Assembly (NCBI GenBank): GCA_050331735.1
Contig: JBHJGN010000019.1
Coordinates: 80,169-144,168 of the forward strand
Reading direction: 5' to 3'
Length of the DNA stretch: 64,000 nucleotides
From: Cyanophyceae cyanobacterium
GTDB lineage: Bacteria; Cyanobacteriota; Cyanobacteriia; Cyanobacteriales; JBHJGN01
This document shows positions 5,713 through 57,124 of this stretch, in pieces. The notes under the pieces were generated by a model. That model had not been told where the DNA came from. It saw only the letters and a program-made list of their open reading frames with translations, and ran no database searches. Positions within the stretch are counted from its first letter, which is position 1. Each line of letters starts with the position of its first letter. The position numbers and the translations under genes are program-made.

Positions 5713-7068
5713 ATGAAACGAGTGCGTCCTTTAATGAGGTTTTTTGTCTTGATGTTAATCGCAGCAATCATACTGGTTGCTCCGGCTGTCTCTCAAGAAG
5801 CGCCAGGCTCGGCTCCTACCGCCTCTACAACCGACGACGGCGCTTACTTTGCAGACGTGTTAGTGAGAGGAAAACCAGTCTTTGAAATCGGGAGCCTAGC
5901 CAATCTCAGCGCCAGCGATCGCGCCCGCATCATTAACCGCCGGATTGCGAGTCTGCTTTCTCAAGGAGGTGAGATTGCATCGGTAGAGACGGTTCCAGAC
6001 GAGCCTCGCGGCATTGCCAAACTCCAGGTCAACAATCGCGTGATTATGACCGTCACAGAGCAGGATGCCCAGGATTTTGGCGTTGATGGTGATGTCGAGG
6101 CGTTAGCGAACCGCTGGAGCGAACGACTCAATCAGGAACTCGATCAGCCGCCACTAGCTATTGATGTTGGCCAGCGCCTCTACGGCACTGTCCGTCAGCT
6201 CCTGCGAGATTTGGTTATTAACCTCCCTTCGCTGCTCGGCGCGGCGATCGTGGTGCTCTTGACGTGGATTGTTGCTAGGGTAGTCCGCTTTATTGCTTTC
6301 AGATGGGCGCAACAAACCGAGGGAGATAGCAGTACGGAAATTTTAATCGGACGGCTGGGCTATGGGGGAGTTTGGGTACTAGGAAGCGTTATCGCTCTGG
6401 GCGTTCTTGGTCTTGATGTTGGCGCTTTACTCGGAGCGCTAGGACTCACCAGCGTTGCTATCGGTTTTAGCCTTAAAGATGTTTTGAGTAACTACATCTC
6501 CGGCGTAATTTTGTTGGCGGCAAGACCGTTTGGGATTAACGATCAGGTCGTAATCGGTGATTACGAGGGCACGATTACGCAGATCCAACTGCGGGCAACC
6601 ACCATGAAAACCTACGACGGTCGCTTAGTATACATTCCCAACCAGGAAGTGTTTCAAGCCAGCATCATCAACAATACGGCTTCTCCTCGTCGCCGCAGTT
6701 CAGTGATGGTAGGGATCGATTACGGAGCAGATGTCGCAGAAGCCATACAGGTCATTATGAAAGCTTTACAGTCCGTCCAACAGGTCGAGCAAAAGCCCGC
6801 AGCAGACGTTTTGGTGCAGGAATTAGCAGCGAGTACAGTCAATTTAGAAGTTCGCTTTTGGGTAGATTCTCGACGTGCTGGTTTTCTGGCTACTACCTCT
6901 CAAGTGGCCCAGGCCATTAAAGAGTCTCTAGAAGCCGCTGCGATTGATATGCCAACCGATATCTATACCTTAATATTTCGTAACTCTCCACCTCAAATTG
7001 GAGACGAAATTAAGAAAGTGCTGACAGACTCGCAAGTTTCTCTCTTCGAGGGCAACTCGTCCAAGTAA
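5713..7068 (+). CDS. Mechanosensitive ion channel (MscS family)
   Basis: The ORF is 5623-7068. I prefer the ATG at 5713 (MKRVRPLMRFFVLMLIAAIIL), which gives a signal/TM segment. There are TM helices and an MscS beta-domain-like core (GVILLAARPFGINDQVVIGDYEGTITQIQLRATTMKTYDGRLVYIPN). Confidence 0.85.
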   Translation: MKRVRPLMRFFVLMLIAAIILVAPAVSQEAPGSAPTASTTDDGAYFADVLVRGKPVFEIGSLANLSASDRARIINRRIASLLSQGGEIASVETVPDEPRGIAKLQVNNRVIMTVTEQDAQDFGVDGDVEALANRWSERLNQELDQPPLAIDVGQRLYGTVRQLLRDLVINLPSLLGAAIVVLLTWIVARVVRFIAFRWAQQTEGDSSTEILIGRLGYGGVWVLGSVIALGVLGLDVGALLGALGLTSVAIGFSLKDVLSNYISGVILLAARPFGINDQVVIGDYEGTITQIQLRATTMKTYDGRLVYIPNQEVFQASIINNTASPRRRSSVMVGIDYGADVAEAIQVIMKALQSVQQVEQKPAADVLVQELAASTVNLEVRFWVDSRRAGFLATTSQVAQAIKESLEAAAIDMPTDIYTLIFRNSPPQIGDEIKKVLTDSQVSLFEGNSSK

Positions 7069-7356
7069 CCTCCTATAAAAGTTGTTGCGAGCCAGCCAGG
7101 AACTTCTTAGACTTTGGCTTTTCCCTGTTTTCCTGGTTCTAGTCATTAGCGACTTTTTCTTGACAAGAAGTTGGTTTCTATTGCAAAAAAAATCTTCTAT
7201 CAAAAGTCAGATATTAGTAAAAAATTAACTGCAACAGGATAGGCAAATTAGCTATTACAGCTAACATTAATCTCTACCTGAAGTGGAGGCTAGTTAAGGA
7301 AGATAATCAGATAAAATAGAAACAAACAAATTACATAAAGTATAGAGGAAAACAAC

Positions 7357-7632
7357 ATGATTGGTAATCTTATCGCTTGGTTAGTTTTAGGTTTAATTGC
7401 TGGTGCGTTAGCAAAACTAATTTACCCTGGTCACCAAGGCGGCGGTATTATCGCTACGATTGGCTTAGGCGTTTTAGGCGCTCTTGTTGGTGGCTTTCTA
7501 GGTAGAGCCTTGCTTGGGACCGGCGGGGGAGCGGCAGCCGGAGTTCTATCAATTCCTAGCATCATTTTTGCTATTATCGGCGCCATCGTCTTAATTTTCA
7601 TCTGGGGTTTATTGACTCGCAGAACAACCTAG
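7357..7632 (+). CDS. GlsB/YeaQ/YmgE family stress-response membrane protein
   Basis: ORF of 91 aa, Gly-rich, with three TM segments (MIGNLIAWLVLGLIAGALAKLI...), typical of the transglycosylase-associated/GlsB family. Confidence 0.85.
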   Translation: MIGNLIAWLVLGLIAGALAKLIYPGHQGGGIIATIGLGVLGALVGGFLGRALLGTGGGAAAGVLSIPSIIFAIIGAIVLIFIWGLLTRRTT

Positions 7633-8308
7633 TTTTTACCACACTGCAGGGCGTTGCTACCAATCGTAAGGCTAGCTTAATCTAAGCTAGGTTATCATTG
7701 GCCGTGAACGACTAACGCCCGACGTTTATTTCCCCTAATCATCATTATTTAGTCTTCCGTTCTACAGCAGTACAGAAGCAAGGTAGAGTCTGGAGGCTCG
7801 ACTAGTTAACGATAAAAGGAAAAGAAACTGTGGGAGCAGAATTTCTGCTCCTCTGTTATTAGATGTCTTGTTAGATGCTATATTGATGCTTTTGTGAAGC
7901 CCGAACTGACTTAACTAATGATATTTTCATTGTTAGCTGAAGCGTAGAAGGCACTGGGCTAATCAACAATTATAAACTGTCAGCTCTCTTGCTCTTCTCG
8001 GTTAACGAAAATGAGAAACGCTAACGAAATTTTACGTCAGCAGTTAAAAAGATAAGGCTAGGGAAGTACGGCACAGTCGACTAGCTTCTGTCGTTAGTAG
8101 GATGAACGAGGTGCAGCTATTTTTTTAATCTATAGGCGGGTGGTAACAAACTAAGCAAGATAAGAGATTAAAACGCGCTTGCAATCATGTCGTATAAATC
8201 AAAAATCTACTAGCCTAACTTTGACACGTTTGTTGATAAGTATCAGCTTCAACGTAGTTTGTTGGCACTACCCTGCGAGTATAGATAAGAATTAAAGGAG
8301 AATTATAG

Positions 8309-48297: not shown

Positions 48298-49143
48298 TCA
48301 ACTGTGCTGTTGACGAGCAAGAGAGTGCTTCACCTGAGTTACATCTACTTCAGGCATATGTAACTCAACTAATGCTACTGTTTCAGCTATTAATTCTTTA
48401 AGCTGGTGAACAGTAGATAAAGGTTCTTGATGATAGAGACTTTCAAGCCGTTCATAGAGATTTTGGGGAGCAATATTCATCTGGTCGATGAACTGTTTCA
48501 TCCGTTTAAACTGAAACGTCGTATAGTACATGCGATTTAGTCCCGCTAGAATGCCCAAGATATTTTGTCCGGCTTCTAGGCGTACTTGATGCTGAAAGAG
48601 TGTAGTATCTCTGGCAGCGAAGTTTTCCTGTAAAGCCCACAACGGGAAAAAACTCAAATAATTTTCCACCATTGCCTGTGCCAAAGCGTCTGGATAGTCA
48701 GCAATCTGCCTCTTCCATTGGGAAATCAGCGCCTCGCCGTACAAAGGAATACAGTTAAGCATTCCCGAAAGCGCTTTTTGTAGGGGAGACACGTCCAGTT
48801 CTTGAAGGACTGTTCTTATGTCTTGTTCCCAAAACGCAATGGTCATGTTGCCGATTTGGAACTCTACACCATCGACAAAATAAAATTCGCCAAAAAAACC
48901 ATCGCTGCGATCGCCTAAAGTCAATGTTGGTTCAGAACCAAGATTTTGCTGGCGGGCCAATTGGAGCTTTTCGATAGCAGGCAGTTCATCGTAGTAAATA
49001 AACATCTCTACATCCGAATAGCAATCCGCTTGCCCTTGAGCAACAGAACCCGTCACCATTGCGGCTTTGGCTTCGGGATTAGCAATGTAGGCTTTGACGC
49101 TTCGTTGTGCCAAATTAAAAAGGTATTGACTCGCTTCGTTCAT
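48298..49143 (-). CDS. Nucleotidyltransferase-fold (Pol-beta superfamily) protein
   Basis: The ORF is 48298-49191 and I prefer the ATG at 49143, which overlaps the upstream stop as ATGA. The motif is GSVAQGQADCYSDVEM, which fits G[SG]-x(9-13)-D-x-[DE]. Confidence 0.65.
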   Translation of the reverse strand: MNEASQYLFNLAQRSVKAYIANPEAKAAMVTGSVAQGQADCYSDVEMFIYYDELPAIEKLQLARQQNLGSEPTLTLGDRSDGFFGEFYFVDGVEFQIGNMTIAFWEQDIRTVLQELDVSPLQKALSGMLNCIPLYGEALISQWKRQIADYPDALAQAMVENYLSFFPLWALQENFAARDTTLFQHQVRLEAGQNILGILAGLNRMYYTTFQFKRMKQFIDQMNIAPQNLYERLESLYHQEPLSTVHQLKELIAETVALVELHMPEVDVTQVKHSLARQQHS

Positions 49144-49673
49144 GATTTTTTTGGCAGTGTTTCCATTAAGTTGGCAAGGCGATACTCCCACTCCTCTTTT
49201 GTGGCTAAATCAATAACACAGTCGTTCGCTGCTTTTAGTCTGAGCGTATTAATCGAGGGGAGATTAAATGTCAGTGCAGAAGGACTCCAATTAGACTCGT
49301 ACAGGAACGGATTGCGAATAGCCTCTGGTTCTAGCTGCTGTCCCTGTAGCGCGACGGCGAAGCCATACTTCTGATGCGTTAACTGTAGCTGCGTTCCGTC
49401 CTCTACTGGTGTTAGCGTCCAGATCACCAGCGTCGTCTCACCCGTCATATCTTGCCAAGTGTAGGCAAGACGTTTGGGAGCAACGAGTTCTACAACCTCG
49501 CATTCAATCGCCTCTAGTCCCGGTAAAGAAGGTTCAAACCTGAATTTATGCCCCAGTTTCGGTTCAAAATCATTCTTCATCATCCAGGTATTTAAAGCGC
49601 GGCGATCCACTAACGCACTCCACACCCGCTGCGGTGGATGAGGATAAAAAACGCTTAGCTTGACTTCTCTCAT
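49140..49673 (-). CDS. SRPBCC (AHSA1/Aha1-like) domain protein
   Basis: The ORF is 49140-49745 and I prefer the ATG at 49673, which overlaps the ArsR stop as ATGA. It reads VFYPHPPQRVWSALVDRRALNTWMM...KLGHKFRF. Confidence 0.8.
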   Translation of the reverse strand: MREVKLSVFYPHPPQRVWSALVDRRALNTWMMKNDFEPKLGHKFRFEPSLPGLEAIECEVVELVAPKRLAYTWQDMTGETTLVIWTLTPVEDGTQLQLTHQKYGFAVALQGQQLEPEAIRNPFLYESNWSPSALTFNLPSINTLRLKAANDCVIDLATKEEWEYRLANLMETLPKKS

Positions 49674-49993
49674 GCATTGTCCTCCAAATAGTCCTCTAGG
49701 GCAGCGAGTTTTTCTTGCCAGAACTGCTCGTAGTGACCCACCCAATCAGACACCTGCTGCAACGGTTCTGAATTGAGCCGATAAAAACGCTGCCGTCCGA
49801 CTCGCCGCTGCTGGACTAATCCTGCCTCACACAACACGCTGAGATGCTGCGATACGGCAGGTAAAGACATTGCAAACGGCACTGCTAGTTGTTTAACAGG
49901 CTGTTCTCCCTGACGAAGCTGATCTAAAATGGCTCGTCGCGTGGGGTCGGCGATCGCCTGAAACACATCGGCGCTGGCAGAAATTCGGCTCAT
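49670..49993 (-). CDS. ArsR/SmtB-family transcriptional regulator
   Basis: ORF with an ATG at 49993. The winged HTH reads VFQAIADPTRRAILDQLRQGEQPVKQLAVPFAMSLPAVSQHLSVLCEAGLV. Confidence 0.88.
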   Translation of the reverse strand: MSRISASADVFQAIADPTRRAILDQLRQGEQPVKQLAVPFAMSLPAVSQHLSVLCEAGLVQQRRVGRQRFYRLNSEPLQQVSDWVGHYEQFWQEKLAALEDYLEDNA

Positions 49994-50171
49994 ACACAAA
50001 CAATTAAGATTTTCCTTAACTATACTAATAATAGGTAAGTAATTACTTAAGTGTCAAGGGTAACGGGCAGCGTTCAGGTTGGCTAAAAATTCAATCTGAG
50101 TTTTGTGTAGCATTTAATACACTTCTCTTTTGGGAAAAACCTGTACTCTGCTACTGTGAATAATTATTTCG

Positions 50172-50280
50172 AGCGCTTCTAGGGTTCCGATTTAAAGCTC
50201 CTTTAAATGTCTGGTCCGAGAGAAGCAGGCTATCTCTTCAAGGAAGATAGCTCCACGGCGGGAAAAAAGCCCGGGAGGAT
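50172..50280 (+). promoter_or_regulatory. Guanidine-I (ykkC) riboswitch aptamer
   Basis: The conserved blocks were read directly: CUAGGGUUCCG (50179-50189), the hairpin atttaaag-ctc-ctttaaat, GGUCCGAGAG (50213-50222), the hairpin gctatct...agatagc, and ACGGCGGGAAAAAAGCCCGGGAG (50255-50277). It lies about 70 nt upstream of an arginase-family gene. Confidence 0.88.
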
Positions 50281-50320
50281 TTGATGCTGAAATAGTATCG
50301 CTCTTCTTGGGTGTTTTTTA
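50270..50320 (+). terminator. Riboswitch expression platform: intrinsic terminator overlapping the aptamer 3' strand
   Basis: Lower stem cccgggagga (50270-50279) pairs with tcttcttggg (50302-50311), with 3 G-U pairs. Upper stem gatgct (50283-50288) pairs with agtatc (50294-50299). The run tgtttttta follows. The terminator competes with the GCCCGGGAG segment of the aptamer, as expected for an ON switch. Confidence 0.6.
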
Positions 50321-50345
50321 TTGATAGGTAAGCGGAGGAATTTTA

Positions 50346-51539
50346 ATGAGCGGACAACCCCCATTCCAGCCACCCGGTAACAACGGCAATAGCTACGCTA
50401 GCGAAGCGCAGCGAGCATTAGAGAGAGAAAGAAACCTGCCCATGACCGGGTGGCAACAAGAAGTCGATCAGGGGTTAGAGTACGGTTTAGAAGCCGCTGA
50501 CAGCATCCGCGATCGCACCATTTCGACGTTTTCGCGGGGGGAATTACCGCACTACGCGGGTATTAACACCTTTCTCAAAGCTCCCTACATTGAAGATGTT
50601 CGCACAGTCGGCAACTACGATGTCGCGATCATCGGCGTTCCTCATGACTCAGGCACCACCTATCGCCCCGGGACTCGGTTTGGACCGCAAGGTATCCGAC
50701 AAATTTCAGCGCTGTACACGCCCTATAACTTTGAATTTGGCGTAGATTTGCGAGAACAAATTACTCTCTGCGATGTCGGGGATATCTTTACCATTCCCGG
50801 CAACAACGAAAAATCCTTCGACCAGATTTCTAAAGGGATCGCTCACGTTTTTAGTTCTGGCGCTTTTCCGATTATTTTAGGCGGCGACCACTCCATTGGC
50901 TTTCCCACCGTTCGCGGCGTTTGTCGCCATCTCGGGGATAAAAAAGTCGGCATTATTCACTTCGATCGCCATGCGGATACGCAAGAAACTGACTTGGACG
51001 AACGGATGCACACCTGTCCCTGGTTTCATGCCACCAATATGGAAAATGCCCCGGCGAAAAATTTAGTGCAGATGGGGATTGGCGGCTGGCAAGTGCCGCG
51101 TGCGGGGGTTAAAGTTTGCCGAGAACGAGAGACGGGCATTCTCACCGTCACCGATATTACGGAAATGGGCTTAGACGCGGCGGCGGATTTTGCCATTGAA
51201 AGAGCCACAGACGGCACCGACTGCGTTTATATCAGCTTCGACATCGACTGCATCGATGCAGGCTTTGTCCCCGGTACGGGCTGGCCTGAACCCGGTGGCT
51301 TACTGCCCCGCGAGGTTTTGTATCTGCTCAAAAAGATCGTGCAAAATACCCCTGTTTGCGGCTTAGAAGTGGTTGAGGTTTCTCCCCCCTACGACGTTAG
51401 CTCCATGACCGCGCTGATGGCCACTCGCGTGATTTGCGATACGATGGCGCATCTGGTGCTGTCGGGACAACTGCCGCGATCGCAAACCCCGGCTTACATT
51501 CACTCCGAAGCTCAGCAGGTCGATTCTCCGTGGAACTAG
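50346..51539 (+). CDS. gdmH: Arginase/agmatinase-family hydrolase, probable Ni-dependent guanidine hydrolase (GdmH-like)
   Basis: ORF of 397 aa with GGAGGA upstream. Ureohydrolase metal motifs are GGDHSIGF, HFDRHADT and SFDIDCIDAGFVPGTG. The specific call rests on context: a guanidine-I riboswitch upstream and hypA/hypB-like genes downstream. Confidence 0.75.
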   Translation: MSGQPPFQPPGNNGNSYASEAQRALERERNLPMTGWQQEVDQGLEYGLEAADSIRDRTISTFSRGELPHYAGINTFLKAPYIEDVRTVGNYDVAIIGVPHDSGTTYRPGTRFGPQGIRQISALYTPYNFEFGVDLREQITLCDVGDIFTIPGNNEKSFDQISKGIAHVFSSGAFPIILGGDHSIGFPTVRGVCRHLGDKKVGIIHFDRHADTQETDLDERMHTCPWFHATNMENAPAKNLVQMGIGGWQVPRAGVKVCRERETGILTVTDITEMGLDAAADFAIERATDGTDCVYISFDIDCIDAGFVPGTGWPEPGGLLPREVLYLLKKIVQNTPVCGLEVVEVSPPYDVSSMTALMATRVICDTMAHLVLSGQLPRSQTPAYIHSEAQQVDSPWN

Positions 51540-51542
51540 GGA

Positions 51543-51695
51543 GCGCCGCAGGCGCAGGGGAAGGAGGAAAGGGAGGGTAGGGAGGGTGATGAAGTTTATC
51601 CCTAGCCCTGTGTTCTTTTCCCGTCCCGCCAGGAACAGTTTCCCCTTTACCCGTTCCGTAGGAACAATTTCCCCCTTCCCCGTCCCGCCAGGGAC
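51543..51695. repeat. Modular repeat copy between the hydrolase and hypA-like genes
   Basis: GCGCC-gca-GGCGC (51543-51555), G tract 51556-51587, core ...ccctgtgttc. Then ttttccc GTCCC-gcca-GGaAC, GTTCC-gta-GGAAC (51653-51665) and GTCCC-gcca-GGGAC (51682-51695). Confidence 0.85.
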
Positions 51696-51748
51696 AAACC
51701 TCCACAAGCTATCGGCTTACGCAGAACTAGAAGAGAAAAGGTGTTTCA

Positions 51749-52120
51749 ATGCACGAAACTGATATGACGAAGGCTCTCATTATCACGGTTAGGGATTGGT
51801 GGGAGACGCAGCCGGAATCGCCCAAAATTAACAAGATTCATCTAATTGTGGGGCAGTTTACCTGTGTTGAACCGGTGAGTTTACAGTTTGCTTTTGAGGC
51901 TCAAACTCGTGACACCTTTCTAGAAGGAGTTGAACTAGCCATTAAAGAAACACCTCTCATTGCTTACTGCCATCGCTGTCAGCAGGAATACAAACCTAAG
52001 CTAGGACTGCAATATGCTTGTCCTGAGTGCCAAGCACCGATGGAAGATATTCGCTCTGGACGAGAATTGAAAATCGACCGTATCGAATATTCAGAGCAAG
52101 CAAACTCCATTCACGGATAA
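51749..52120 (+). CDS. hypA: HypA-family nickel-insertion protein (GhaA-like accessory protein)
   Basis: ORF of 123 aa with an MHE start and the zinc site CHRCQQEY...CPECQ. Confidence 0.85.
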   Translation: MHETDMTKALIITVRDWWETQPESPKINKIHLIVGQFTCVEPVSLQFAFEAQTRDTFLEGVELAIKETPLIAYCHRCQQEYKPKLGLQYACPECQAPMEDIRSGRELKIDRIEYSEQANSIHG

Positions 52121-52130
52121 CTGAAAAACT

Positions 52131-52829
52131 ATGCATCAAACATTCGACGCAGCTTTAGAAGTTAATTTACTCCATGCTAATCAGCAGGGCGCAGACCACA
52201 ATCGAGAACATTTCGATCGCTGGGGGATTACCTGTCTCAATATTATGAGCAGTCCTGGGGCGGGAAAAACGGTGTTGCTCGAACAAACCCTCAAGGCGCT
52301 GACAACAAAGTTTAAGATAGCCGTTATTGAAGGAGATATGACGACCGAACTGGATGCTGACCGCCTGCGCCAGTATAACGTTCCCGTGATTCCCATCAAT
52401 ACCGGACGTTCCTGCCATCTTGATTCAAAAATGGTGGCGGGAGGGTTGCATACTCTCGAACAGCACTATCAGCCCCAAGATTTTGATTTAGTATTGGTGG
52501 AAAACGTTGGTAATCTTGTTTGTCCTGCGGAATTTGAGGTGGGAGAACACGCGAAAGTGGCGCTTCTTAGCGTTACAGAAGGAGAAGATAAGCCTTTAAA
52601 GTATCCGGTGATGTTTCAAGAAGCAGATTGTTTATTAATCACTAAAACTGATTTAGCACCTTATCTAGACATTGATCTAGAAAAGATTAGGGCCAACGTG
52701 CGGCAAATGAACCCCCAGGTAGCCATTATTTCTGTATCCGCTAAGACAGGTGATGGGTTAGAAACGTGGTTCGATTGGATTGGGAACTGTATTCAGCAAA
52801 ATCGAGCAAAGTTGGCAGCGACGGCTTAA
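52131..52829 (+). CDS. hypB: HypB-family nickel-dependent GTPase (GhaB-like accessory protein)
   Basis: ORF of 232 aa with the P-loop [20 protein letters not shown] and ITKTDL. Confidence 0.88.
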
Positions 52830-52860
52830 AAATAGCTGTTATCCATCAGCCTGAGAAATC

Positions 52861-52881
52861 TAATAGCTAATAGCTAATAGC
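52861..52881. repeat. Three perfect TAATAGC heptamers (STRR-like)
   Basis: The sequence taatagctaatagctaatagc was read directly, between the hypB-like and symporter genes. Confidence 0.85.
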
Positions 52882-52919
52882 TATTTCAATATAATATCGG
52901 TCTAAAACGAGGAGAAATA

Positions 52920-54407
52920 ATGACTGAAACACTTTTATTTTGGGGAATTTTACTATTCCTTTTTGCAACCATCGGCATCGGCATTTGGGCAGCTAAGCAA
53001 GTCAAAGGGGATAGTGAAAACTACCTCGTCGCCGGTAGGGGACTAGTTTTACCTCTAGCAGCAGCAACTCTGATGGCCCAATCCGTTGACTCCAACGCGA
53101 CTTTAGGAAACACGGATTTGTCGGCGGAATTTGGTTTTTGGGCGGGGGCATCTTTGCCTCTAGGTTTAGCTCTCTGTTTGTTCATGACGGCACTTTTCTT
53201 TGCTAAACCAATGAACCGCATGGGACTAATTACCTTACCGGATTTCTATCGCGTTAAATACAATCGCCTCACTGAAGTCGTGGCATCTGTTCTAATGGTG
53301 TTGAGCTTTGCTTTTCTATTGGCTGGAAACATGGTTGCCGGCGGCTACCTGTTTGAAGCTTTTTTAGGAACGAGCTATACGGCAGGAGTGATGATGCTGG
53401 CGATTGTTGTTTTTATCTATACGGCAAGCGGAGGACTGTTTGCCGTAGCCTATACGGATGCAATTCAAGTAGCGATCGCCTTTGTTGGTTCGATTAGTCT
53501 CTTTGCCTTTATTATCGCCAACTTTGGTTTAACCATTCCAGCGGGTACAGGTCCGTTTGCGTTGGCTCAACTCACCGATCCGGCTATGGGAGCAGCGATC
53601 AACTGGGCAACACTTTTGGCTTTAGGATTAGGGGATATTGTCGCTGTCGATTTTATGGCGCGAGTCTTTGCCGCAGAAAGTCCAGAAACGGCTCAAAGAG
53701 CCTGCTTAATTGGCTGTGCAGGGACGATTATCATCGGAGTTCCATTTTCCTTGATTGCGCTCTCGGCAAACGACATACTGGCAGCAGCCGGAGTGAGTGC
53801 TGATGGACCGATTCTGTTTGCTCTCCTCGGTAGTGTTGTTCCTCCCATTTTGGCACTACTCGTCATCGTAGCAATCTTATCAGCTTCTCTATCCACCGCC
53901 GATGGAGCCATTTTAGGCACATCTTCAGTCATCGCTCATAACATCATTGGTATTCGTCACGACGACCATACAGCAGGCGGAGACAGACTCCTATTGGTCA
54001 CCCGCGCTATGGCTTTGGTTATGACGCTGTTTGGGGTTTTCTTTGCCTTGAGAGTTCCCCAAACCGGAGTGTTACTATTGCTCGCTTTCGATCTGGGGTT
54101 TGCCGGATTGCTTGTTCCGCTTGCTGGCGGACTCTACTGGCCTAAATCGACTTGGCAGGGCGCACTTTCCTGCATCATTTTAGGATCGCTGACGCGATTA
54201 GTAATGTTTGTGTTGATGCCAACTATGTTTGGAAGCGAAAATACGCTGCTGTATATTCCTAACAACTTATTTACAGCAGATTTCGATGGGTTTCCGACCC
54301 TGATCAGTCCTCTGGTGGGGTTGGTTGCGTTTATCGTCGTGTCTAACATGACGAAGAAAGGAGAAGTGTCAACAGAGGAACGAGAGGCCCAATTATATCG
54401 CGGCTGA
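52920..54407 (+). CDS. Sodium:solute symporter (SSS) family transporter
   Basis: ORF of 495 aa, about 13 TM, with an SSS-like N-terminus (YLVAGRGLVLPLAAATLMAQSVDSNATLG). Confidence 0.85.
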   Translation: MTETLLFWGILLFLFATIGIGIWAAKQVKGDSENYLVAGRGLVLPLAAATLMAQSVDSNATLGNTDLSAEFGFWAGASLPLGLALCLFMTALFFAKPMNRMGLITLPDFYRVKYNRLTEVVASVLMVLSFAFLLAGNMVAGGYLFEAFLGTSYTAGVMMLAIVVFIYTASGGLFAVAYTDAIQVAIAFVGSISLFAFIIANFGLTIPAGTGPFALAQLTDPAMGAAINWATLLALGLGDIVAVDFMARVFAAESPETAQRACLIGCAGTIIIGVPFSLIALSANDILAAAGVSADGPILFALLGSVVPPILALLVIVAILSASLSTADGAILGTSSVIAHNIIGIRHDDHTAGGDRLLLVTRAMALVMTLFGVFFALRVPQTGVLLLLAFDLGFAGLLVPLAGGLYWPKSTWQGALSCIILGSLTRLVMFVLMPTMFGSENTLLYIPNNLFTADFDGFPTLISPLVGLVAFIVVSNMTKKGEVSTEEREAQLYRG

Positions 54408-54557: not shown

Positions 54558-54917
54558 TTAACGATAGTAAGTCACGCCGCGATATTTTAACTGAATGGGT
54601 TGAGCAGGCTTGGCTGTCTTCTGGGCTTTGCTCAGCGTTAGGTACCAACAGCGCTCAAGTACTTCTAATTCATTCAACAGCAAACAGAAGTTTAAGTATT
54701 GGCGCTTGTGACCATACCAAAACGTTACCGGATCGATCACTGGTTTTGCTTCTGAGCGCTGAAATAGCTGTTTAAGGTACTTAAACAAAGGAAAATGAGG
54801 TTTAATCGTCGCCTTGACGTATCCTTGGCAATGCGCTGGGCGATCGCCTACGGCCACTCCTGATGCCGATTTTGGCTCATCTCCGCTGTACGGTACTCCT
54901 CGATAGATGAGTTTCAT
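54558..54917 (-). CDS. DUF4278 domain protein
   Basis: The ORF is 54558-54932 and I prefer the ATG at 54917. It starts MKLIYRGVPY and ends LKYRGVTYYR, both typical of DUF4278. Confidence 0.75.
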   Translation of the reverse strand: MKLIYRGVPYSGDEPKSASGVAVGDRPAHCQGYVKATIKPHFPLFKYLKQLFQRSEAKPVIDPVTFWYGHKRQYLNFCLLLNELEVLERCWYLTLSKAQKTAKPAQPIQLKYRGVTYYR

Positions 54918-55121
54918 TCGCGCCACCTCCAAAGATGCTGCATTAATTGTGAGGTGCGTTCCTTCAGGATCGTTAAACTTGTCCCTACTTCCGTCTCCCG
55001 GCTAGATATGAAGAGATGAACGGCTTTTGTGCTATATGTTCATGGTAGACAATTTTAAATTGCCCGATATGCTCCATCCGATAGAGATGTTGCCCTTGTT
55101 TGAGCAACGGTGTTGCCGAAG

Positions 55122-55987: not shown

Positions 55988-57124
55988 CTATTGCTCGAGT
56001 TCTTTCAGCAGCTCTTTAGAAATGACTCCATGTATTCCTTTGACAATATCTACTACTTGAGACACTTCATAATCGATCGCTGCGCTGCCAAGCAGGAGAG
56101 CATCTTGTTTAGTCAAGCCGTACTTGGTTTCGACAATTTCCAAAGATTCCCGAACCGCTTTCTTCATGGCCTCATCTAAATCCTCGTCTAAGCCAATGGA
56201 GAGCCAAGCTTGGGGCGTTTCTCCCATCGGAGAATCGAGCTGCATATCTTTGTGGACAATGAGCTGGAAAGTTGGAGTCAAAGAGCATTCAATGGCCGTC
56301 AGCGCCACTTCTCCGTTGCCTTGAGCGCAGTGGGGGTCGCCGCTGTAAAACAGTGCTCCTGGAACCTGCACCGGGAGATAGAGACTTGATGTTTCAACGA
56401 GGTGCTTAATATCGACATTGCCACCGTAGTTTCCCGGGGGAATAGAGTTGACGGCATCTTCTGGGTCGAAAGGAGCGACCCCCATAATTCCCATAAAGGG
56501 ATTGAGAGGAATTTCGATGTTTGGGCGATCATTAGCGGGGCGAAAGATGCCGACGCCTCGCTCGATATCCAACGGAATCACCTTGGTGTAAATTTCGGCA
56601 TCATTGACGGGATATTCTCCCGGTAAAGCTCCTTTACTGTGACGATTGGAGATCACGCCGTAGGGAACCCGATACTCAATGTCAAGGGTTTTGACCTCCA
56701 GCACATCTCCTGGTTCCGCCCCTTCAACATAGATAGGTCCGGTAATGACATGGGGACCGGGTGCCGTTCTTTCAATATTTTGCTTGACGGCAAGCTGATC
56801 GCCGAGAATCTCCTCTTCGGCAATGCCAGCCTTCGTAAAAAACTCCACCGTGTCTCCCTGATCCGGCAAAATTCCCTCATGAGAAACGGTTTCTAAAGTC
56901 ACAATCGCCCCCGACTCTACCCGCAGAATTGGTTCGCTGTCGGGCTTAAATAGCTCTCCCCAAATAACGTGATCTGGAGTAGACTGCACCATATAGGTTT
57001 CAGTCTGCTCAGATTGCCCCACGACAGGGGAAAAAGAACCAATAGCCCACAACAGCGTGGCGACTAATACCGTTCCTCCTAGCCACGACCACCGACGAAA
57101 CCGAAGCATGCGCAAATACTGCAT
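55988..57124 (-). CDS. Acetamidase/formamidase family protein, secreted
   Basis: ORF of 378 aa. The signal-like N-terminus is RRWSWLGGTVLVATLLWAIGSF. FmdA/AmdA-like blocks are GPIYVEGAEPGDVLEV and GGNVDIKHL. Confidence 0.8.
   Translation of the reverse strand: MQYLRMLRFRRWSWLGGTVLVATLLWAIGSFSPVVGQSEQTETYMVQSTPDHVIWGELFKPDSEPILRVESGAIVTLETVSHEGILPDQGDTVEFFTKAGIAEEEILGDQLAVKQNIERTAPGPHVITGPIYVEGAEPGDVLEVKTLDIEYRVPYGVISNRHSKGALPGEYPVNDAEIYTKVIPLDIERGVGIFRPANDRPNIEIPLNPFMGIMGVAPFDPEDAVNSIPPGNYGGNVDIKHLVETSSLYLPVQVPGALFYSGDPHCAQGNGEVALTAIECSLTPTFQLIVHKDMQLDSPMGETPQAWLSIGLDEDLDEAMKKAVRESLEIVETKYGLTKQDALLLGSAAIDYEVSQVVDIVKGIHGVISKELLKELEQ

Follow-up and report, generated by a model that had tools for sequence, protein, structure and literature searches.

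A guanidine-I riboswitch-controlled gdmH-ghaAB operon of a cyanobacterium carries a candidate Na+-coupled guanidinium importer

Guanidine has only recently been recognized as a natural nitrogen source, and its uptake is poorly mapped: one ATP-binding cassette (ABC) importer has been characterized and one APC permease predicted. In Synechocystis sp. PCC 6803, gdmH (sll1077), ghaA (sll1078), and then ghaB (sll1079), follow one another behind an NtcA-type box and a guanidine-I riboswitch with ON-terminator logic, and riboswitch function, NtcA control and the functions of GdmH and GhaAB have been published for these orthologues (PMC12704784, PNAS 2025). The genes that come next, gimABC (sll1080-1082), have their own NtcA promoter and encode a NitT/TauT-type ABC importer, of which GimA binds guanidine with a Kd of ~97 nM; the same study inferred a second, lower-affinity uptake route besides GimABC (PMC12704784). 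Other ABC-type guanidine importers have been described from carboxylase-pathway operons. The predicted APC permease, from comammox Nitrospira, is a secondary transporter encoded directly downstream of a guanidine-I riboswitch and beside a GdmH-like guanidinase (PMC11410670). Here, we analyzed a 64-kb stretch of contig JBHJGN010000019.1 from a Cyanophyceae cyanobacterium (hereafter the window), which carries a counterpart of the Synechocystis operon with a sodium:solute symporter (SSS) gene as its last member.

With its riboswitch, terminator logic, NtcA input and gdmH-ghaAB genes, the window provides a further example of the published system, and we are almost certain that the locus is a gdmH-ghaAB operon under guanidine-I and NtcA control. 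What is new is the transporter on this known operon, which comes from a superfamily that had no earlier connection with guanidine; comparative genomics supports this part strongly. The SSS gene very probably belongs to the guanidine regulon, and on balance we favor the view that its product imports guanidinium together with Na+. For the account as a whole, a two-input nitrogen-scavenging operon of a marine-type cyanobacterium with a Na+-coupled guanidinium importer, we estimate a probability of about 0.62. A full-text literature search, recent reviews included, found nothing that ties SSS transporters to guanidine; Nelson 2017 and Funck 2022 were outside its scope, and an earlier passing mention or an entry in a gene-association table is possible. 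Papers combining guanidine, ykkC and symporter looked unrelated by title, in one case with symporter only in the reference list. The elements of the locus are as follows.

50107-50120, plus strand: NtcA-type box GTAGCATTTAATAC (GTA-N8-TAC), a pattern match; probable nitrogen-limitation input of the promoter
50144-50149, plus strand: -10-like hexamer TACTCT (TA-N3-T), read from the sequence, 23 nt past the NtcA-type box
50168-50279, plus strand: guanidine-I (ykkC subtype 1) aptamer, RF00442
50220/50221, 50257/50258 and 50274-50276, plus strand: aptamer pocket nucleotides G37/A38, G67/G68 and G84/G85/A86, respectively, in Dickeya dadantii crystal-structure numbering
50269-50319, plus strand: intrinsic terminator (expression platform), with a stem at 50269-50312 and U6 at 50314-50319
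50346-51539, plus strand: gdmH, predicted Ni2+-dependent guanidine hydrolase, 397 amino acids, PF00491 (E = 5.6e-79)
51540-51748, plus strand: gdmH-ghaA spacer, 209 nt, with purine- and pyrimidine-rich repeats and no open reading frame (ORF)
51749-52120, plus strand: ghaA, HypA-type Ni metallochaperone, 123 amino acids, PF01155 (E = 1.3e-30), TIGR00100 (116.8 bits; cut-off 88.1)
52131-52829, plus strand: ghaB, HypB-type GTPase, 232 amino acids, TIGR00073 (314.7 bits; cut-off 121.2)
52830-52919, plus strand: ghaB-SSS spacer, 90 nt
52920-54407, plus strand: SSS-family transporter, 495 amino acids, last gene of the operon, PF00474 (E = 4.5e-32, residues 35-422)

An Rfam scan of the whole window gave two matches above curated thresholds, one of which was Guanidine-I (89.1 bits against a gathering score of 63; E = 1.2e-14). 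The match is full length (model positions 1-107 of 107), and no other ykkC-type family reached threshold in the window. An earlier note on this DNA, made from the letters alone, had placed a ykkC/guanidine-I aptamer at 50172-50280, and the scan bears this out. When the binding pocket was mapped onto the Dickeya dadantii crystal-structure numbering, G37 and A38 (the bulge), G67, G68, G84, G85 and A86 were all present, with the A-tract at 50263-50268; subtype 2 carries pyrimidines at positions 67 and 38 (PMC5340920). Every position that separates the guanidine-binding subtype 1 from the subtype 2 of guanosine tetraphosphate (ppGpp) and phosphoribosyl pyrophosphate (PRPP) is of the subtype-1 kind, which supports the identity given in the earlier note. 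Moreover, across 25 related aptamers from other genomes pairing reached 96.1% and 15 of 27 pairs had changed in a compensatory manner; none of 500 shuffles attained these values.

The terminator hairpin has a predicted dG of -22.5 kcal/mol (z = -4.67), and none of 200 shuffles was equally stable. It is also present in the minimum free energy fold of the whole leader, and a terminator scan recovered its inner part. The hairpin takes its 5' arm, GCCCGGGAGGA, from aptamer helix P3, of which it is the 3' strand. Since aptamer and terminator have this strand in common, a ligand-stabilized P3 and the terminator should be mutually exclusive, as in the published ON-switch design of this class. The window leader is, by its predicted folds, an ON switch, in agreement with the logic that the earlier note had read from the shared strand.

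The riboswitch of the window has the NtcA-type box 61 nt ahead of it. A single occurrence of GTA-N8-TAC is at chance level (6 boxes in the whole window against 5.07 expected). Its position is conserved: of 31 loci with a riboswitch, 24 have a box whose start lies 48-64 nt before the riboswitch and another two have one at 83-84 nt, while the background frequency is 0.02 boxes per 150 nt. The 23-nt spacing from box to -10-like hexamer in the window matches the canonical layout of an NtcA-activated promoter. The conserved position of the box, together with the control of Synechocystis gdmH by both NtcA and the guanidine-I riboswitch (PMC12704784), suggests that the operon needs two signals, low nitrogen for initiation and guanidine for read-through.

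The first gene encodes an arginase-family protein that is 86.8% identical (330/380) to Synechocystis Sll1077 over almost its whole length (PDB 7esr/7oi1; E = 5e-235, 783 bits). After these, the best PDB match (587 bits) was 9fek, whose deposited name is 'Putative agmatinase 2' and which we take to be the Nitrospira inopinata guanidinase. Agmatinases scored 131 bits or less (E ~1e-36), and guanidinobutyrase and metformin hydrolase were also far lower. The metal-ligand motifs GGDHS, FDRHADT and SFDIDCID are intact, as the earlier note had recognized, and so is PGTGWPEPGG, which holds the equivalent of the gating Trp305 of Sll1077. The protein barely passes the NCBIfam agmatinase equivalog (178.3 against 174.3); this is a naming artefact and accounts for the usual mis-annotation. 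The comparison supports a hydrolase of the GdmH type rather than a SpeB agmatinase.

GhaA has an N-terminal MHE and a CHRC...CPEC zinc site, while GhaB has the P-loop SSPGAGKT and a CH motif, with neither the N-terminal CxxCGC high-affinity nickel motif nor a His-rich stretch. No hydrogenase gene was found within ~14 kb upstream or in the ~9.6 kb downstream to the window end. The earlier note had likened the HypA-like and HypB-like genes to GhaA/GhaB and the arrangement to sll1077-1079; profile scores, gene order and hydrolase identity all agree with this. The gdmH-ghaA spacer contains a direct repeat (51617-51637 and 51676-51696) and an inverted repeat (51557-51570 and 51668-51681); we considered and rejected a structured RNA there, as its fold was not significantly more stable than those of shuffles (z = -1.62). 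The same junction is variable elsewhere: several Pleurocapsales loci insert genes for a SAM-dependent methyltransferase and a glutathione S-transferase on the same strand (L003:5254-6753; L024:5050-6457), which fall inside the riboswitch-controlled unit.

The SSS gene starts 90 nt past the ghaB stop codon, as first described in the earlier note, and the gene beyond it is convergent. Its surroundings were compared across a census of 80 genome loci encoding SSS relatives, which were scored by tblastn with the window proteins and with a covariance model, R1, built from 25 aptamers; R1 replaced strict regular expressions for the aptamer, which had caught only 12, then 31 loci. The cyanobacterial set comprised 61 loci (at least 70% SSS identity), 54 of them with enough flanking DNA, and was distributed as follows.

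gdmH-ghaA-ghaB-SSS on one strand, riboswitch found: 25 loci
gdmH-ghaA-ghaB-SSS on one strand, no riboswitch found: 2 loci
gdmH-ghaA-ghaB-SSS on one strand, cut at a contig end: 3 loci
gdmH near SSS in another arrangement: 3 loci
SSS alone, riboswitch element directly upstream: 8 loci
neither gdmH nor riboswitch, full flanks: 13 loci
flank too short for judgment: 7 loci

The one-strand order gdmH-ghaA-ghaB-SSS was found in 30 of the 54 informative loci (30/61 overall), 25 of these 30 with the riboswitch, in Pleurocapsales, Moorena, Spirulina, Lyngbya, Acaryochloris-like and other lineages. Within this group ghaA neighbors gdmH in every locus (30 loci; two contig-cut ones show only ghaB-SSS). 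The ghaB-SSS gaps measure ~35-325 nt, and ~3 kb in locus L019, where gimABC intervenes. Culturable relatives with this operon include Xenococcus sp. PCC 7305 (L001), Spirulina subsalsa CS-330 (L048) and Lusitaniella coriacea LEGE 07167 (L039).

It is conceivable that the SSS gene is an unrelated neighbor with its own promoter, and that its adjacency is synteny inherited within one cyanobacterial lineage, of no functional meaning. The 13 loci devoid of any guanidine element would fit this, and a 90-nt gap could hide a weak promoter missed by a consensus scan. Such scans found no promoter-, NtcA- or terminator-like site on the plus strand of the window gap, and GTA-N8-TAC is absent from all 30 ghaB-SSS gaps (the window and 29 other genomes; ~35-325 nt), whereas stand-alone SSS copies do carry it; an own promoter, which the earlier note had raised as an objection, did not come to light at this level. 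Moreover, the linkage extends across many lineages, was rebuilt in different orders (L019 and L029, see below) and recurs outside the cyanobacteria, as riboswitch-gdmH-SSS in an Actinomycetota metagenome-assembled genome (MAG; L065). A 61%-identical gdmH lies ~3.7 kb from the SSS gene, on the other strand, in a Polyangiaceae MAG (L061). Together with the riboswitches placed independently before SSS genes (next paragraph), the spread and the rearrangements of the linkage make mere synteny very improbable. Two observations concern these loci in their own right. The gdmH of L065 (6879-7930) is split into ORFs 6540-7361 and 7373-7948, by a frameshift or by a MAG assembly error. In L003, L009, L010, L012, L013, L017, L022, L027 and others, a near-palindrome abuts the SSS Shine-Dalgarno sequence within the last ~30 nt of the gap; its halves change in match (GGTCAA..TTGACC, GGTCTA..TAGACC), both an RNA hairpin and a protein operator are conceivable, and the window has a degenerate version.

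An intact guanidine-I riboswitch (103-117 bits) lies 94-348 nt ahead of four SSS genes that stand alone (L016, L025, L051 and, in filamentous cyanobacterium ESFC-1, L036). Each of these riboswitches has a terminator on P3 strand AAAAGCCCGGGAG (-28 to -46 kcal/mol), and two of the loci (L016 and L036) also have an NtcA box. Directly upstream of four other stand-alone SSS genes lie decayed guanidine-I remnants (L023:7728-7849, L026:1617-1713, L037:7786-7885 and L054:2654-2762), which scored 31-44 bits with R1, under all Rfam thresholds, and have damaged P1 or pocket nucleotides; they look like riboswitches being lost. A control element stands directly before SSS only where SSS does not follow ghaB, which is the pattern expected if the SSS gene in its operon form depends on the upstream promoter and riboswitch, and would be co-transcribed with gdmH-ghaAB. 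Among 23 SSS loci in which no riboswitch had been detected, none of the other guanidine RNAs (guanidine-II, -III and -IV, and ykkC subtype 2) reached the Rfam gathering threshold; only tRNAs, glutamine riboswitches and one group II intron did.

The stand-alone genes also bear on whether the SSS protein might carry the urea that GdmH produces, be it leaked urea taken back up or urea from outside, so that its link to gdmH would exist only because both feed urease. Some SSS members, those of the DUR3 type, transport urea. A urea transporter is encoded beside gdmH in Synechococcus WH8020 (PMC12704784). Nevertheless, the four intact stand-alone genes have no gdmH beside them and are under a riboswitch specific for guanidine, whose pocket selects against urea (PMC5340920). 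The two stand-alone SSS loci examined for urease or urea genes (L006 and L050) have none beside them, their neighbors being unrelated, and the haloarchaeal loci described below already have a Urt-like ABC system beside SSS. Invariant aspartates in or near the core helices and kinship to choline carriers also suit a cationic substrate better. Urea, which the earlier note had offered as the alternative substrate, is unlikely.

The SSS protein falls below the cut-off of every NCBIfam model that it matched, including the equivalogs PutP (108 bits; cut-off 515.5), PanF (89; 328) and ActP (33-41; 750 or more), as well as VC_2705 (73; 321). Family members are 58-86% identical across cyanobacteria, the Actinomycetota and Polyangiaceae MAGs and haloarchaea, and in an alignment of 78 bacterial and haloarchaeal sequences, identity reaches 97% or more at 168 of the 495 positions. 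The best solved relatives of the family profile are the choline transporters CHT1/SLC5A7 (E = 1.4e-32), ahead of vSGLT (7e-19). These and bacterial CHT (PDB 8j74, 9bfi, 9rws) share the SSS (LeuT-type) family with the window protein and transport a small organic cation. By profile alignment to CHT1, a protein that we estimate to be only ~20-25% identical, the Na2 ligands A60, V63, A343, S346 and S347 (PMC11589582) correspond to A53, V56, A322, S325 and T326, identical or conservative throughout, and the Na3 aspartates D188 and D349 to D180 and D328. The five Na2 residues are unchanged in 15 of 15 diverse sequences of alignment A3, and four of them (all except V56) are at least 97% identical across the 78-sequence alignment. 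By contrast, the six-residue aromatic choline cage of CHT (W62, Y67, Y91, W141, W254 and W406) is not kept and aligns to S55, A60, L83, L133, A242 and L386. The CHT1 loop VGGGY, which binds the co-substrate Cl-, aligns to V-D57-S-N-A with Asp57 invariant, and two further invariant aspartates, D244 and D391, lie in or near the aligned transmembrane (TM) 6 and TM10 core.

Scores below the equivalog cut-offs and the missing aromatic cage lead us to regard the window protein as a member of a separate, unnamed SSS subfamily. Its pocket differs from that of CHT and is probably carboxylate-based; we infer that the protein carries a small cation together with Na+ and that carboxylates, in place of an aromatic cage, hold this substrate, which would suit guanidinium. 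Characterized SSS members are Na+-driven importers, and export is implausible for a cationic substrate when the Na+ gradient points inward. The hosts belong by name largely to marine or saline lineages (Pleurocapsales, Moorena, Spirulina, Acaryochloris, haloarchaea); this fits Na+ coupling, as a correlation only.

How the SSS gene relates to GimABC was examined next. No gimABC was found in the 64-kb window, where the only hit was a generic ABC ATPase at 31% identity. The two transporters share the operon position and the presumed role, guanidine uptake ahead of hydrolysis, but are of unrelated superfamilies, ATP and a binding protein in the one contrasting with predicted Na+ symport in the other; unlike gimABC in Synechocystis, the single SSS gene has no detectable promoter of its own. 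In L019 the order on one strand is gdmH-ghaAB-gimABC-SSS, in L029 it is gdmH-ghaAB-SSS-gimABC, and L044 has gimAB-like genes in the SSS locus on the strand opposite to SSS. Since both occur in one locus, SSS is not merely a substitute for gimABC, and the two would seem to complement each other in affinity or capacity. The earlier note's proposal that the symporter is a candidate dedicated guanidine importer gains considerable strength from comparative evidence (a conserved operon, four SSS genes with their own riboswitch and no NtcA box in 30 gaps), the importer role being still a candidate one; a plain replacement of the ABC importer does not fit. The comammox APC permease is comparable in that its guanidine import is likewise predicted rather than proven; it differs in family (APC against PF00474), in predicted coupling (protons against Na+) and in its loci, which lack the Ni chaperones present in the window (PMC11410670). 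The commonest guanidine-riboswitch-controlled transporters, Gdx/SugE of the SMR family, are also guanidine-induced via an ON riboswitch, but are four-helix antiporters that expel guanidinium, whereas the window SSS gene is tied to a catabolic enzyme and not to detoxification.

SSS homologues ~59% identical to that of the window lie in a conserved cluster of haloarchaea (L066-L080; e.g. L067:4912-15931), in the order CbiQ/CbiM, NikR, a JAB-domain gene, SSS, an AbrB/PhoU-domain regulator, an arginase-family enzyme and the Urt-like ABC system. The enzyme (410 amino acids) is 36% identical to GdmH, which is still its best PDB match, and in 13 of 13 loci PGTGEPEPGG replaces PGTGWPEPGG, with Glu at the gating Trp. 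On these two grounds, the low identity and the Glu, we rejected it as a true GdmH. The cluster may represent an undescribed nickel-linked pathway for guanidino compounds in Archaea.

These relatives bring up a further alternative, that SSS imports another small nitrogen-rich cation (methylguanidine, agmatine or another guanidino or amidino compound) which yields guanidine or is merely co-regulated with it. The distinct haloarchaeal enzyme beside NikR and CbiMQ speaks for this, as does the co-occurrence with GimABC in three loci, which suggests non-redundancy. However, the enzyme linked to SSS in bacteria is always of the Trp-bearing GdmH type (33 loci and the window), published GdmH and the comammox guanidinase are specific for free guanidine, and the controlling riboswitch senses only free guanidine. 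A weaker point is that the cage positions of CHT1 align to small or aliphatic residues, indicating a different rather than a larger pocket. We regard another cation as rather unlikely, though less so than urea.

Several points weigh against SSS as a guanidinium importer. First, guanidine transport and guanidine-responsive expression are candidate properties of the SSS family. Second, 13 cyanobacterial SSS loci with full flanks have neither gdmH nor riboswitch, so the link is strong but not universal. Third, the presence of SSS and gimABC-like genes together in L019, L029 and L044 fits a high- and low-affinity pair and equally a different substrate. Fourth, with Glu at the gating Trp of the neighboring haloarchaeal enzyme, the SSS substrate in haloarchaea may be another guanidino compound. 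Lastly, the residue mapping is a profile alignment to the distant CHT1.

Collectively, we propose the following mechanism. Under nitrogen limitation, the NtcA-type promoter, postulated from the conserved box, would start transcription of a leader that folds into the guanidine-I aptamer. When guanidine is absent, the 3' strand of P3 would pair into the terminator and transcription would halt ahead of gdmH. Bound guanidinium would hold P3 and block the terminator, such that polymerase reads through gdmH-ghaA-ghaB into the SSS gene. GhaA and GhaB would load nickel, upon which GdmH would split guanidine to urea and ammonium. The SSS protein would most likely take up guanidinium on the inward Na+ gradient, and such uptake would give positive feedback, as riboswitch-controlled ABC importers (GimABC-type) and APC permeases do in other guanidine users.

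The surroundings of the operon include further elements that we describe as side observations. A glutamine riboswitch (RF01739; window 54953-55024, minus strand; 49.2 bits against a threshold of 35) precedes an ORF of 124 amino acids with a C-terminal DUF4278 match (54558-54932, minus strand), and the pair is convergent with SSS. The arrangement resembles, as we presume, that of a cyanobacterial glutamine-synthetase inactivating factor (gifB/IF17). In L002, L008, L011 and L026 the two elements are again found downstream of SSS, and the DUF4278 ORF alone occurs near SSS in ~11 more loci. An acetamidase/formamidase-family gene (window 55988-57124, minus strand) lies 1.6 kb downstream of the operon; a 53%-identical homologue (L065:5314-6501, plus strand) stands immediately upstream of the riboswitch-gdmH-SSS unit of the Actinomycetota MAG. 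Such a gene was not seen near the other cyanobacterial loci, and coincidence is possible. Divergent from the operon, 49670-49999 and 49140-49745 (both minus strand) encode an ArsR/SmtB-family metalloregulator and an AHSA1/SRPBCC-domain protein. The best promoter-scan match in the region, TTGACA-18-TATTAT at 50057-50028 on the minus strand, would serve these two genes.

The SSS gene is a single-gene candidate, repeatedly under guanidine-riboswitch control and ~59% identical between cyanobacteria and haloarchaea. We see an even chance that this conserved subfamily is the first family of Na+-coupled guanidinium importers, and with it a third mechanistically distinct uptake route besides ABC and APC transporters. 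Marine and saline habitats may be where it typically occurs, and it may be the kind of lower-affinity system that was inferred, but not identified, in the Synechocystis work. If confirmed, this role would extend the known substrates of the SSS family by a new class, improve the annotation of about a thousand proteins labeled 'Na+/proline symporter' and help to predict guanidine-using marine phototrophs and halophiles. Guanidine-inducible expression tools and guanidine-biofertilizer strains, both under construction in cyanobacteria, would also gain a compact module for uptake. The haloarchaeal members, if the same holds for them, would mark an undescribed nickel-associated cluster for the assimilation of guanidine or guanidino compounds in Archaea.

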